Positions 12,001 through 17,349 of a stretch of DNA of 64,000 nucleotides are shown in pieces. Source of the stretch: Escherichia coli (lineage in GTDB: Bacteria > Pseudomonadota > Gammaproteobacteria > Enterobacterales > Enterobacteriaceae); the NCBI RefSeq assembly GCF_041248615.1, contig NZ_CP158426.1. One strand, given 5' to 3'. The stretch's first letter is position 1. Each line of letters begins with the position of its first letter. Position numbers: made by a program.

Positions 12001-15000
12001 CGAGATAATGTGCATGATTATAGGTACCCCTGATGGAGTTTTTATCCACATGAGCTAACTGCATTTCAATCCAGGCAGAATTAAAGCCCTGTTCGTGCAG
12101 AATGGTACTCATGGTGTGACGAAAACCATGACCGGTTGCCCTGCCATCGTAACCGATACGTTTGAGCACCATATTGATGCAGCCTTCACTCATAGGTTTG
12201 TTTACATCGCAACGTCCGGGTAGCATAAGGCGATACTGTCCGGTAAAACCATGTAATTCCTGCAGAACAGAAATGACCTGGCGTGACAGAGGAACAATAT
12301 GAGGCCGGCGCATTTTCATTCTCTCTCTAGGGATATGCCAGAGTGCGTTGCTAGAATCAATTTCTGACCATTCGGCCAGTCGCAATTCAATCGTTCTGAG
12401 CCCGGTCAGAATCAGCAGGTTTGTAGCCATACGAGTGACAGGACTGCCGTGATAGTCAGCGAGCTTCCGGAGAAAAACAGGAAGTTCATCCGCTCTCAGA
12501 TGGGGAAAATGTGCGGTTTTTGGTGCCGCCAGCGTGCTGCTCAGTTCTGAGGCTGGATTGACAGTGGCTCGTCCTGTGGCTATGGCATAACGGAAAATCT
12601 GATTGCAGTATTGCCGGACCTTGCGTAGTTTTTCCAGAGAGCCTCGTTTTTCAATTCGACGTAGTATTTCCAGCATTTCCAGTGGAAGGATATCAGTAAC
12701 GCTCCGGTTGCTCAGATACGGGAAAACGTCTTTATCCAGAGCTTCCAGTACGCTTCTGGCGTAACTGTCAGACCATGATAAAGATTTATGATGATGCCAT
12801 TCGATTGCGAGAGCATGGAAGGTGTTGGTGACAGAGATTTTCTGTGAGAGTTTTTCCCTTCGTTTCTTTTCACCGGGATCACCGCCCTCGGAGATAATTT
12901 TCCTTGCATCGTCGCGTTTGGTTCTGGCTTCTGCAAGGGAGACGTCAGGATAGACACCGAAGGACAGTTTTTTCTCCTTTCCTGCTATCCTGTACTTAAA
13001 GCGCCAGTAGCGTGCTCCCGTGGTTTTTACCAGCAGATATAAACCACGTTCATCAGAGAGTTTATAATCTTTGTCTTTAGGTTTGGCTGTTTCGACTTGT
13101 CTGGCTGTAAGTGCCATATGGGGGCTCCTGAAACTGACTGAACACAATGGGCCCCCAAATATGCCCCCATTTTATGCTTGATTTAGGGGGTGAACAGTAG
13201 AATTCAGTGGAGCTCATAATGTTCGGGTTGACTGTAATATGGTGATTGTGCATGAGTTTTACGGAGTTTGGGAGGCAGAGGTAGAAGTGAAGGTAGTACC
13301 CTCCTTAAGAACGTTTTTCAGGAATACGGCACAGCCCCTGAGCGGGAATGTCCATGGCAGAATTAAAACGGGCTGACAGGTTTTGCAGTCCGATCAATGC
13401 CGTCAGTTCGGTGAGCGCCTGGGCGTCAAAATGCGCAGCCAGTCGGGTACGCAGGGCATCATCGACCGTTGGCGGCGTTACGCTTGCGGCTTCGGCGTAC
13501 TCCAGCGCCAGCCGTTCTTCATCGCTAAAAAGCGGGCTTTGCCGCCAGTCAGCCACTGCCAGCAGTTTATCGGTGCTGCCAGTGCGCTCGGCGACTTTCA
13601 TACTGGTGATATCCACGCAAAACTCACACAGACACATTTGCGCAATGCGCGCGCTGACAAGCGATCGCACTACTGGATCCAGCGGTGAGCGTTTGCGCTC
13701 CAGCCAGCCGACAAACATCGACACCAGATAAAAGATAAACGGGATCCGCCCCCACCAGCGAATCGGGCTTAGCACCTCGCCGTAATGGCGACGATGCAGC
13801 CACGCCTGCGGACGTAAAATGAAAGGAATTTTGCTAAGCGGCGGTAAACCCATCAGGCATTCCTCTTCTGGCGCTCAAGCCATATTTTCTTCGCCATAAA
13901 AATCACCACGGTCAGGGCAAACAGAATAAACAGTCCGGTGACAAACCAGAAAGTACCGCCTGTTAACATGCTGCCCGCCCAGGAATAAACAATAGTCGCC
14001 GGTAACTGACCAAGCCCGGTGGCGATAAAAAACGAGCGAAAACGTATTGAAGTCAAACCGGCAGCATAGCTTACGGGATCAAAAGGCACAAAAGGCAATA
14101 ATCGGCATACCAGAATGGTGTGTTTACCATAGCGGGTAAAAAAGCCGTCCATACTATTGAGTACCGTTTTACCCGTTAACTTTTCCACCACTTCGCGGCC
14201 CATCACTCTGGCGATAAAAAAGCACAGCGCCGCGCCGGCCATCGAACTGGTCCACGACAGCAAGCCGCCCCAGAGCGCGCCAAACAGCGACGCATTGGCA
14301 AAGGTGATCAAAAACGCAGGTAGCGGTGCAGCAATGGCCTGTAAAATCATCAACAAGAACGAGACAACTGCCGCCAGTGCGCCGTAAGACTGAATAAAGC
14401 GTTCTATACCCTGTTGGTCCACGGCGGCAAACGCCGCAACGCTGCGATTGATAAACTCATGGACGCCGGGAAGCAGCGCCCATGCCAGCAGCATAGCGAA
14501 CAACAGGATGATGAGGGTTATACGGTAATACCAGATTTTTCGCGATTGCATCTTCATCATCCTTTATTCTGGCTTTATTCGGTGATTTTAAAGGTAACCG
14601 TTGCCAGCGTGTTATCCGCCGGGAGAACCGAGGCATTGCCTTTGAATTTAACTTCACCTCGTTTTTCAACCGCACCATAAGTGTATGTTGCATTGCTGAC
14701 GATGCCGACCGGGCAGCTATCCAGACACACCAGGCAGCCCGTTTTCTTCTCTTCTGCTGCCGTTAAATTACCGCCAAAGCGCATGTCCAGTTTCTTGCCA
14801 TTACTGTCAACAATCACTTCATCGAAGGAATACGCTTTTGCCGCCCCTTGCCAGTTGACCGAAATATCCAGTTTGCTGCCTGTGACATGAGTCGTTTCTT
14901 TATTATCCATCGTCATATTTTCGCCTGGCGTACCACCGACCTCTTTCAGGGCTTCATAAAATGCTTTCGGGGTCGCATAACCCATAAACAGCGATTTATG

Positions 15001-17349
15001 TCCGTTGGAGCCATCTTTAAACACAATACCGTGACGAGTGTCGTCGGTAAGGAAACGACCATTAATTTGCACCAGCATGGTTACCGTATGGTTATTGGCA
15101 TCGACGCGCAGCGGTTGGCTGTTCGAAAGTTCGTCGTATTCCACTTTTGCCGCCGCATTCTCTTTTTGATCGCAGCCGCTAAGCCCGGCAACAGCCAGTA
15201 AGCAGAGTGCAGTCAGTCCTTTTTTCCATGACGCTGAATAATGTTGCAACATCGTTCTATCCTTCATTTTTTGGGTGAGTAAGTGGGCTGCGGCGCGAAG
15301 CAGACAGATCCACATGTTTGTGTCGAGCATAGAGTTTGGCGAGCTGGACGAGAATAAACAGCGCCAGGCCCGCCAGACAGAGTTGTAAAATAAAGCGCAG
15401 CGTAATGCCTTCATTGGCGAGATCGCTTGCCATCACGGTATAAATAACAATACCGGGCAGAGTCGTGAGTGCTGAAATAAGGGTATAAGGCCAGAAGGCG
15501 ATTGTGGTTAATCCGTAAGCGTAATTTTGAATATTGTAAGGAAACAACGGGATTAAGCGGGTCAGAATAAGAAAATCAATACCGTTACGCGCAATGCCTT
15601 TCTCAATGGCCTGGAAGGTATGGCTATGGCCAACGTATTTCAGCAGTAAATCACGTCCCAGCCAGCGCGCCAGCAGGAATGAGCACGAGGAGGCCAGCGT
15701 GGCGGCAATTAATGATAGTAGTGTCCCTAAGAGCGGGCCAAAAACTATTCCTCCAGCGATCACCAGTATGCTTCCTGGTAACAGAAAGAGGGTGGCAATG
15801 ATGAATAACAGAATATAGAGGCTATAACCGAACAATCCGCTCTGGCGAATGAGTGTCAGTAAATGAGGTAAATCGGTGAGCAGCTCGAATAAACCGAAAG
15901 CGTGGAAAGCGTAAATGACCAGCGCAAAAATAAGACAGGCAAAAAGAAATTTACGCTCAGCGTTCATTGTGGAGTTTCCTATATCAAACTTGATAATAGA
16001 GAAGTGGTCAGACAACTAAAAACGCAGTGACGGTATAACAAAGGGCGGCAGGCAACAAATCATTACTGACAGTTTGTTGATTTTTCTCAAGGTTAATTCT
16101 CCTGACCCAGTTTGAGCCAGGAGAACAGCTAAATTAGCGGCGGAAGGTCGCCCAGACGGGGGCGTGATCGGACGGTTTTTCCATGCTGCGGATTTCATAG
16201 TCGATGCCGGTTTCTACGCAACATTCTGCCAGCGGTTGGCTGGCGAGAAGCAGGTCGATACGCAGACCGCGGTTATCGTCAAAACCTTTTGAGCGGTAAT
16301 CAAACCATGAGAAACGATCGGCTGTTTGCGGATTCGCATGGCGGAAGGTATCGACCAACCCCCAGCTCATCAGTCTCTCCATCCATTCGCGTTCTTCCGG
16401 AAGGAAAGAGCATTTTCCGGTACGCAGCCAGCGCTTACGGTTCTCTTCGCCAATGCCAATATCCAGGTCGCCAGGACTGATATTCATATCGCCCATAATC
16501 AGCACCGGATTTTCACGCTTGAGTTCGGTTTCCAGGTAGTTTTGCAGATTCTGATAAAACTGCGCCTTTGCCGGGAATTTTATCGGATGGTCGCGGCTTT
16601 CACCCTGCGGGAAGTAACCGTTGATCACGGTGACATTACCCAGCGGTGAGGGGATTTCCGCCATAATAATCCGCCGCTGCGCCTCTTCGTCGTCACCGGG
16701 AAAACCGCGACGCACGGCAATCGGCGTCTCTTTGGTCAGCAGCGCCACGCCATAATGGCCTTTCTGCCCGTGATAAAACACGTTGTAGCCGAGCTTCGCC
16801 ACCTCTTCGAGTGGAAACATATCGTCATGAACTTTTGTCTCCTGCAGGCCAATCACATCCGGCTGGTGCTTTTCGACGATGGCTTCAAGCTGGTGAGGTC
16901 TGGCGCGCAGGCCGTTGATATTAAAAGAGACAAATTTCATAGTCGCTGCCATTTATTCAGATAAAGAGTGCGTGGATGGTAGCAGAATTTCGCTTTGCTT
17001 ACCGCCTGTTGTTAAGTGATTTGATCGATGGTTGTTAATGATGTCAACGATGGCGCAAAAAATGCCCGCTTTTGGTGCGCGCTGCGTCAGAATGGCGCAG
17101 TAATTTCCAGTAAATTTCGTCAATGATCACAATTCCAGAATTATATTTTACTTCTGCATAACATTGCGTTTTTTATTCTTTTTATTCACCCATATCGCAA
17201 ACGTATTCACTTTATATGCACTTTAAATGCATATGGTTTGGTTATAACTCCTTGATTTCCAGTTAGCCACCGCGGTTTATGCACTTTTATCACTGGCTGG
17301 CACGAACCCTGCAATCTACATTTACAGCGCAAACATTACTTATTATTAA

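Follow-up and report, generated by a model that had tools for sequence, protein, structure and literature searches.

What do two membrane proteins of the DedA superfamily do together with the lipoprotein encoded between them? The question is raised by the ydjX-ydjY-ydjZ genes of Escherichia coli, which we analysed in a stretch of 64,000 nucleotides (nt) of contig NZ_CP158426.1 (assembly GCF_041248615.1), referred to below as the window. An earlier note on this DNA had placed the trio at positions 13853-15967, describing two DedA-family genes on either side of a lipoprotein gene, with a poorly defined joint function. On the minus strand, three open reading frames (ORFs) occupy exactly these coordinates, just as in the RefSeq annotation, domain and lipobox evidence agree that two VTT-domain genes flank a lipoprotein gene, and a literature check found, in the literature searched, no paper defining the function. 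The genes are already known and annotated, there is nothing new in the sequence itself, and the earlier description is largely right. The arrangement is real, but the trio does not stand alone: it makes up the promoter-proximal genes of ydjXYZ-ynjABCD, an operon activated by FNR (PMC3688515), and belongs to a larger system conserved across phyla. Our tentative answer, to which we would give slightly less than an even chance, is that ydjXYZ encodes the core, next to the promoter, of an envelope system which is induced anaerobically and serves to relay or transport selenium or sulfane sulfur. The anatomy of the locus, family membership, conservation, neighbourhoods and fusions discussed here come from this analysis, while FNR activation and co-expression are taken from published work.

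ydjX, ydjY, ydjZ and ynjA are located downstream of xthA and are all transcribed from the minus strand according to both our ORF calls and the RefSeq annotation of E. coli NRZ14408 (NZ_LT599825.1), which is 100% identical to the window. The gap between ydjX and ydjY is 4 nt, that between ydjY and ydjZ is 14 nt, and the ydjZ stop codon overlaps the ynjA start codon (TGATG), so the four genes are translationally coupled within one operon. YnjA belongs to the AhpD/CMD-like family (PF02627, 36.4 bits against a cut-off of 23) and has a CxxC motif, C-E-F-C, within CLCEFC. Its match to NF053654, the 'YciW-related (seleno)protein' model, scores 101 bits, which is under the cut-off of that model.

YdjY scores 147.8 bits with NF040466 (ydjY_domain, cut-off 50), and PF27149 was precomputed for every listed homologue of this protein. 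Its N-terminus reads MLQHYSASWKKGLTALCLLAVAGLSG/CD. For a lipoprotein we looked for a positively charged n-region, a hydrophobic h-region and a lipobox [LVI][ASTVI][GAS]C; YdjY has K10-K11, the hydrophobic stretch LTALCLLAVAG and the lipobox LSGC (L24-S25-G26-C27) and is predicted to be a lipoprotein. The signal is of the Sec type, lacking a twin-arginine motif. A lipobox is present in most YdjY homologues, and GCDQ or GCDK is kept in most of the enterobacterial and related ones. In E. coli, Asp at position +2 after the lipidated Cys acts as a Lol-avoidance signal causing retention in the inner membrane. As Asp28 occupies this position, YdjY is predicted to be retained there, alongside its VTT neighbours.

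Thirty-five positions are invariant in an alignment of 32 YdjY homologues, including R73, H74 and the three cysteines C173, C176 and C180, which lie in the context G-C-x-x-C-L-D-S-C-P. All 32 aligned proteins have the cysteine triad, and CxxCxxxC is also present in 99 out of 107 full-length, more divergent representatives. The fold of YdjY is predicted with confidence, and no related structure has been solved. YdjY is duplicated in tandem in some cases, either as two adjoining genes (L058:7110-8555) or as two domains in one protein (P0121 of 427 amino acids (aa) and P0229 of 566 aa). Other fusions join YdjY to DUF5719 and a cytochrome c-like region (P0164), to a fatty-acid hydroxylase domain (P0239) or to an fn3 domain (P0198). 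P0122, which looks like a YdjX-YdjY fusion, results from a deletion or read-through in E. coli and was not used as evidence.

YdjX and YdjZ both carry the VTT domain PF09335 (93.1 bits, E 2.3e-26 and 86.8 bits, E 2.1e-24, respectively; the Pfam gathering cut-off is 33.9). Their description as DedA-family proteins is therefore correct at the superfamily level, but the branch is a different one. RefSeq names both of them 'TVP38/TMEM64 family protein', and in published trees they fall into the COG0398 / TVP38-TMEM64 branch (PMC10127716; bioRxiv 10.1101/2020.12.18.423352), grouping with eukaryotic TMEM41/Tvp38, apart from the other six E. coli paralogues. Direct reading of the loops gives APLPAFLITFANASLFG / CRLLPFVPFD for YdjZ and LLPGSILVIAGGIVFG / TRLIPLFPYN for YdjX, and the acidic and paired basic residues typical of the flippase clade are absent from COG0398 members (PMC10127716). 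The two proteins obtain just 28.6 and 34.3 bits with the NCBIfam UptA equivalog model, whose cut-off is 250. Four of the eight E. coli paralogues, all of them from COG0586, sustain viability (PMC10127716). When the eight were expressed in Bacillus subtilis, high resistance to MX2401, an antibiotic binding undecaprenyl phosphate (UndP), was conferred by DedA only, and YdjX and YdjZ were not among the paralogues reported as protective (bioRxiv 10.1101/2022.02.03.479048). From the RefSeq names, the published trees and the loops, we conclude that YdjX and YdjZ belong to the COG0398 (TVP38/TMEM64, VTT) branch and not to the UndP-flippase branch.

The two VTT proteins share 28% identity across 165 aa (E 2e-17), which bears out their description as paralogues, but they represent two separate lineages and not recent duplicates: the Z-type orthologues from Firmicutes and Campylobacterota have a median identity of 54% to YdjZ, while the median for the X-type is about 34% to YdjX. 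Cys113 of the Z-type proteins is invariant (54/54 sequences) and Cys152 is found in 93% of them.

To describe the genomic context of ydjY, we collected 80 ydjY loci from 43 genus-level lineages with flanks of +/-8 kb, and called and clustered their ORFs. A VTT gene is present at 72 of the 80 loci, on the same strand as ydjY in 70 of these 72 cases and within 1.5 kb of it in 62. Of the eight loci lacking one, five are on truncated contigs, and the remaining three (L024, L029 and L044) have full 8-kb flanks. Three architectures were found. In the first, typical for Firmicutes and Campylobacterota, YdjY is followed by a Z-type VTT protein, and a membrane protein of about 130 aa is either fused to the latter or encoded before it. 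The second, with X-type and Z-type VTT proteins together, occurs in Escherichia, Peptostreptococcus, Clostridium, Catonella, Campylobacter and Facklamia. In the third, found in Desulfobacterota, an X-type VTT protein fused to a cytoplasmic Fer4_8/Fer4_17/CCG (HdrD-like) part is followed by YdjY and then by a small protein. The small membrane protein (about 125-150 aa), which belongs to no Pfam or NCBIfam family, comes after ydjY in Campylobacterota and Desulfobacterota (e.g., L038:8641-9036, L095:8097-8483 and the N-terminal 130 aa or so of L017:8694-9878); in Firmicutes it forms the N-terminal part of the YdjZ-type protein, and it seems to be missing from E. coli.

Rhodaneses are recurrent partners of YdjY. 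Four of the 15 YdjY-family representatives longer than 290 aa are rhodanese fusions (P0149, P0157, P0150 and P0229). They represent four independent architectures, with both domain orders and the active-site Cys intact; all four have an N-terminal export signal and three have a lipobox. Rhodanese genes adjoin ydjY in 12 of the 43 lineages. Among the neighbours, which were confirmed with NCBIfam or Pfam and counted by tblastn across the 80 loci, YnjE-type rhodaneses are present at 13 loci (6 lineages) and small periplasmic rhodaneses at 6 loci (6 lineages). Fer4/CCG proteins, whose best NCBIfam match is NF045663 'diclust_near_Sec', are even more widespread, at 24 loci in 17 lineages. These fusions and neighbourhoods functionally link YdjY with VTT proteins and rhodanese, and the three constitute a rare and tightly conserved module.

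Several lineages have YedF, DUF3343, SelD or SelB encoded near ydjY. YedF (202 bits) was found at 7 loci from 6 lineages and SelD (365 bits) at 6 loci from 4 lineages; in Facklamia, SelD, YedF and SelB come directly after YdjY and a rhodanese. YnjB-like binding proteins, together with a permease and an ATPase, are encoded at 17 loci (9 lineages), and several Firmicutes have, within a single operon, the set of genes which E. coli spreads over ydjX to ynjF. The order in one locus (L034) is YnjB-YnjC-YnjC-ATPase-YnjF-like-YdjY-YdjZ-type. The locus with the L095 small membrane protein encodes, on the same strand, a YdjZ-type protein, a rhodanese-YdjY fusion, this small protein, a YdjX-type protein, a TusA/DsrE (YedF-like) protein and the PF11823 'Se_S_carrier', and on the other strand an ATP-binding cassette (ABC) system similar to YnjBCD, a cytidine diphosphate (CDP)-alcohol phosphatidyltransferase and a CCG protein. 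HGD-D and BcrAD_BadFG genes are located near the rhodanese-YdjY fusion of another locus (L093). A hint to the ligand of YnjB was sought as well; the protein has no sequence relative in PDB, and NCBIfam assigns it to a generic substrate-binding protein subfamily only. In Gemella-type loci, an ArsC-family gene recurs about 3 kb from ydjY. No paper linking YdjY or VTT proteins to selenium or rhodaneses was found in the literature searched.

In E. coli, ydjXYZ-ynjABCD is a direct category-1 target of FNR, which activates it from a site centred at -60.5 according to chromatin immunoprecipitation (ChIP) data (PMC3688515). The FNR-like site upstream of ydjX (Table 1) is not significant as a motif, with 5 matches in the window against 3.3 expected; we counted it because its position fits the published ChIP site. 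No consensus sigma-70 promoter was found upstream of ydjX, and terminator-like matches inside the coding sequence do not exceed the chance level. A perfect inverted repeat, TATCAA-GT-TTGATA (15982-15995, minus strand), lies between the ydjX ribosome-binding site and the presumed start of transcription and resembles FNR/CRP half-sites in reverse arrangement. Co-expression data, which the earlier note had proposed to consult, are available and suggest a role in selenium/molybdenum use. By independent component analysis of transcriptomes, an uncharacterised iModulon of 11 genes was defined, comprising ydjXYZ-ynjABCD, yedEF, yjiLM and ynjE; it is more active anaerobically and was related by its authors to molybdenum and selenium usage (PMC7888660). 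Independently, the comparative genomics of Lin et al. 2015 connected YedE, YedF, DUF3343 and genes for a YjiL/YjiM-like activase and dehydratase with selenium genes (PMC5322559). YnjE is periplasmic and performs poorly as a thiosulfate sulfurtransferase; no substrate of physiological relevance is known for it (PMC10215317). Mild induction of ynjABCD by BaeR overproduction was also reported (PMC2731931). YgfI/DhfA was considered as a specific regulator and set aside as uninformative, as the mutant has lowered expression of ydjY, ynjE and yjiLM along with the entire anaerobic regulon.

Table 1. Positions of the ydjXYZ-ynjA genes, their functional elements and the adjoining island edge in the window
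Feature	Position	Strand	Description
FNR-like site upstream of ydjX	16077-16090	-	TTGAGAAAAATCAA; one mismatch to TTGAT-N4-ATCAA
ydjX	15257-15967	-	236 aa; VTT/DedA-superfamily inner-membrane protein, 'X-type'; PF09335, RefSeq annotation
ydjY	14575-15252	-	225 aa; lipoprotein, founding member of the YdjY family (NF040466 / PF27149)
YdjY signal peptide	15172-15252	-	Lipobox LSG/C (Cys27), then Asp28; sequence reading
YdjY invariant Cys triad	14710-14736	-	Codons for C173-L-V-C176-L-D-S-C180-P181; homologue alignment
ydjZ	13853-14560	-	235 aa; VTT/DedA-superfamily inner-membrane protein, 'Z-type'; PF09335
ydjZ Cys113 codon	14222-14224	-	
ydjZ Cys152 codon	14105-14107	-	
ynjA	13305-13853	-	182 aa; AhpD/CMD-like, motif CLCEFC; PF02627
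End of E. coli colinearity (~13301)	13298-13304		Breakpoint 3-4 nt after the ynjA stop codon, inside the ynjB ribosome-binding site
Tyrosine integrase	11930-13117	-	P4-type domains; at the island edge

How could such a system operate? YdjY would be located at the outer face of the inner membrane, where its invariant CxxCxxxC triad may accept the element from, or pass it to, a rhodanese of the periplasm, which in E. coli would be YnjE. Passage through the cytoplasmic membrane would then be the task of YdjX and of YdjZ, the strictly co-conserved VTT partner with an invariant membrane Cys. YdjX relatives from other phyla are fused to a cytoplasmic HdrD-like Fe-S/CCG disulfide-reductase domain. 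Thiol or Fe-S receivers in the cytoplasm may be YnjA, with its CxxC, in E. coli, and CCG domains, YedF, DUF3343 and SelD elsewhere. The choice of selenium or sulfane sulfur as cargo is suggested by the conservation of the module with its YdjY-YdjZ co-conservation, the rhodanese fusions and neighbours, the Fer4/CCG partners, the SelD, YedF and SelB genes nearby, the FNR and iModulon data combined with the gene set of Lin et al., and the membrane cysteines of YdjZ. Substrate, direction and thiol-relay chemistry are what we infer from this combination, and import for selenoprotein synthesis under anaerobiosis is the variant we favour. The more specific proposal that the YdjY-VTT-rhodanese system (in E. 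coli together with YnjBCD, YnjE and YnjA) is the missing dedicated selenium-acquisition route of E. coli and many anaerobes, or alternatively carries a previously unknown lipid head group bearing selenium or sulfur, we consider speculative and rather unlikely.

Several considerations weigh against selenium or sulfane sulfur as the cargo. Evidence for this role is association throughout. The X-type VTT proteins have no conserved cysteine, no selenocysteine (in-frame TGA) variant of YdjY was found among 82 tblastn high-scoring segment pairs, and many loci, e.g., those of Gemella and Finegoldia, have no selenium or sulfur gene within 8 kb. The aerobic periplasm of E. coli would oxidise a free Cys triad, though the operon is expressed anaerobically. 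Lipid-type enzymes are encoded in the same neighbourhoods: YnjF-like CDP-alcohol phosphatidyltransferases at 11 loci (7 lineages), transferases of the TIGR04283 and TIGR04282 families at 17 loci (9 lineages) and 15 loci (8 lineages), respectively, and, in the same operons, the flippase-like TIGR00374 protein and an APH-type kinase. The phosphatidyltransferase, kinase, transferases and flippase-like protein are the chief point that a plain ion-transport model leaves unexplained. Finally, every characterised DedA/VTT member, whether UptA, PetA, TMEM41B or VMP1, moves lipids (PMC10193950).

The main rival explanation takes up these last facts and regards YdjX and YdjZ as a scramblase/flippase pair for a specialised anaerobic lipid or lipid-linked head group. 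YnjF would make the lipid from a substrate imported by YnjBCD, while the head group, once flipped to the periplasmic face, would be the target of YdjY and the rhodanese. Besides the lipid-type enzymes, it can rely on the nearest characterised relatives being lipid transporters (PMC10127716; PMC10193950) and on the many invariant polar residues of YdjY, as expected for an enzyme or a specific binding site. By itself, however, it leaves unexplained the fusions with rhodanese and Fer4/CCG domains, the YedF, DUF3343, SelD and SelB neighbours and the co-expression with yedEF, and E. coli lacks the transferases and the kinase. We consider it rather unlikely on the whole. The lipid and chalcogen readings are compatible, as they merge if the cargo is a lipid-linked carrier of sulfur or selenium.

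In Campylobacter concisus and its relative, ydjY is found within one operon (L062:1347-8467 and L065:2673-9278) which encodes YdjY, the small membrane protein, a TIGR04282-kinase fusion, YdjZ-type and YdjX-type proteins, a TIGR04283 transferase, a Fer4/CCG protein and an enzyme of the radical S-adenosylmethionine (SAM) type. In Facklamia and one Clostridium, the cluster is joined by a protein that, by sequence reading only, looks like a nucleoside hydrolase. The content of this operon and the hydrolase-like protein suggest that an 'arsenosugar-like' small-molecule or lipid head-group pathway is coupled to the module.

A different cargo is proposed if YdjY is a periplasmic binder of a thiophilic metal or metalloid (for instance, As(III), Hg(II) or Cu(I)) feeding the VTT proteins in the MerP-MerT fashion, for the purpose of detoxification or of arsenosugar/arsenolipid synthesis. 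Three-Cys sites are typical for As(III) binding, the current name of the TIGR04282 and TIGR04283 families is 'arsenosugar biosynthesis glycosyltransferase', and a radical SAM enzyme similar to ArsS is also encoded near ydjY (10 loci, 8 lineages). COG0398 proteins are also often fused to mercuric-reductase-like pyridine nucleotide-disulfide oxidoreductases (PMC10127716). However, the match of the radical SAM enzyme to ArsS is weak (78 bits, cut-off 300), no ars or mer genes (arsM, arsB/ACR3, merA) were recognised among the annotated neighbours, and FNR control and co-expression with yedEF suit nutrient acquisition better than detoxification. All this makes a metal-binding role improbable.

The name '4Fe-4S ferredoxin-type', attached to YdjY in EcoCyc-derived tables, implies yet another function, namely that of a periplasmic 4Fe-4S ferredoxin shuttling electrons, with the VTT proteins as its membrane partners. 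Indeed, CLVCLDSCPVG resembles the second half of the CxxCxxCxxxCP motif, and the best PDB alignments of YdjY are with Fe-S subunits. The latter are not significant (E 0.29-0.32) and align a Lys with the first ferredoxin Cys; YdjY has three cysteines only, none of the Fer4 Pfam families matched it at E <= 0.01, and the predicted fold gave no match to the ferredoxin fold. Exported cofactor-containing Fe-S proteins use the twin-arginine translocation (Tat) pathway, whereas the signal of YdjY is of the Sec type. The ferredoxin name rests on a partial motif resemblance and is not supported, and the electron-shuttle role is very improbable. Some sources call YdjY homologues 'ferredoxin' as well.

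Least credible of all, and largely refuted, is that YdjX and YdjZ are redundant UndP recyclers like UptA/DedA, with YdjY as an unrelated passenger: the shared superfamily with PF09335 and the weak matches to the UptA model speak for it, but we rejected it given how far these scores are from the cut-off, the absence of the flippase-clade residues and the MX2401 results described above, and the tight YdjY-VTT co-conservation speaks against a passenger.

The system is as rare as it is conserved. A profile search of 1.84 billion cluster representatives returned 395 YdjY-family proteins at E <= 0.001, and a scan of one genome per species found YdjY in 107 of about 100,000 species, in full agreement with the view that the arrangement is an uncommon one. 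Within the Enterobacteriaceae, the hits listed are confined to Escherichia and a small number of Citrobacter/[Enterobacter] genomes. Most of the other hosts are anaerobes or commensals of the mouth and gut, including Firmicutes (Peptostreptococcus, Finegoldia, Gemella, Facklamia, Catonella, Clostridium, Thermincola), Campylobacterota (Sulfurospirillum, Campylobacter concisus) and Desulfobacterota (Desulfarculus, Syntrophobacterales). Identity to the E. coli YdjY is 47-61% across Firmicutes, Campylobacterota and the other listed phyla. Within E. coli, the 3-kb ydjXYZ region is present once in each of 5424 out of 5426 complete genomes. As the cluster is core in E. coli yet patchy across phyla at such identities, it looks, from sequence comparison, like an old horizontal acquisition under strong constraint. 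The earlier note had called it core genome and not island; the near-universal presence in E. coli confirms the former, while the patchy occurrence among the enterobacterial hits listed and an abutting island that truncates the operon qualify the statement.

In the strain studied, this pathogenicity island of more than 75 kb starts 3-4 nt past ynjA and carries insertion sequence (IS) elements, iha, sitABCD and iucABCD-iutA. The integrase-ynjA junction is shared by 29 of the 5426 E. coli genomes. There is no tRNA gene at the junction, and searches around the cluster and the integrase found no Rfam family and no tRNA. The trio, ynjA and the promoter are all preserved, while the downstream ynjBCD genes are cut off from the FNR-driven operon; no ynjB-F sequence is present in the window. 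ABC-transporter pseudogenes to the left were considered as possible ynjCD remnants and rejected, being island cargo next to PhoX and Iha. Further island cargo at about 7500-11900 includes genes for a cytochrome b562 and a short YebF-family protein, along with pseudogenes for a polysaccharide deacetylase, a GT4 glycosyltransferase and a phosphoethanolamine transferase.

Overall, the comparative evidence defines a rare YdjY-VTT-rhodanese module, corrects a misleading database name and turns 'function unknown' into a specific hypothesis. Even if selenium proves to be wrong, the functional link between VTT proteins, an exported Cys-triad protein and rhodanese stands, and we did not find it described in the literature searched. 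The 2022 and 2026 reviews know of no specific selenium uptake system or transporter in prokaryotes, so selenium acquisition is an open question in selenium biology for which the cluster provides a testable candidate route. The hypothesis can be tested directly, since the cluster is present in E. coli K-12, where single-gene deletions and assays of selenium-dependent formate dehydrogenase are routine.

Among the known systems, YedE/YedF and YeeE/YeeD (TsuA/TsuB), which handle thiosulfate or selenium, resemble the proposed one in their logic, with a membrane transporter and a small thiol carrier. The likeness to YedE/YedF extends to the co-expression of yedEF with ydjXYZ and to YedF being a neighbour of ydjY in 6 lineages. 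The families are unrelated, however, as Sulf_transp and TusA are used in one case, VTT and YdjY in the other. The carrier of the YeeE/YeeD system is also cytoplasmic, whereas YdjY is extracytoplasmic. The MerP-MerT-MerA and DsbD/CcdA relays would follow a similar logic as well, with a periplasmic Cys protein, a Cys-containing membrane protein and a cytoplasmic reductase of the disulfide type. There is no relationship in sequence or fold, and YdjX-type proteins lack a conserved Cys, so the resemblance may be taken as an analogy only. Within the DedA superfamily, the DedA protein of Ralstonia metallidurans is reportedly (work of Ledgham et al. from 2005) genetically linked to selenite uptake; we know of no YdjY or rhodanese partner for it.

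The UndP flippases UptA/DedA (COG0586) and the phosphatidylethanolamine transporter PetA share with YdjX and YdjZ the superfamily and the predicted membrane fold with re-entrant loops, but differ from them in the equivalog scores and the diagnostic charged residues. TMEM41B, VMP1, Tvp38 and the bacterial COG0398 proteins are closer, having the VTT domain PF09335 in common with YdjX and YdjZ and being placed together with them in published trees. Todor et al. associated the COG0398 subfamily with aerobic metabolism (PMC10127716). The YdjX/YdjZ clade can be considered an exception, since it is induced by FNR in E. coli and its hosts are for the most part strict or facultative anaerobes. For the COG0398/VTT branch, which includes the bacterial proteins most closely related to human TMEM41B and VMP1, no physiological substrates are known (PMC10127716). 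The eukaryotic members act as scramblases of bulk phospholipids, with no partner resembling YdjY, while the VTT genes of ydjXYZ are tied to an exported Cys-triad protein, rhodaneses and Fe-S/CCG domains. If the proposal of a dedicated selenium-acquisition route is true, the YdjY-VTT-rhodanese system would be the first of the DedA/VTT superfamily with a protein-bound or small chalcogen species as its physiological cargo instead of bulk membrane lipid.

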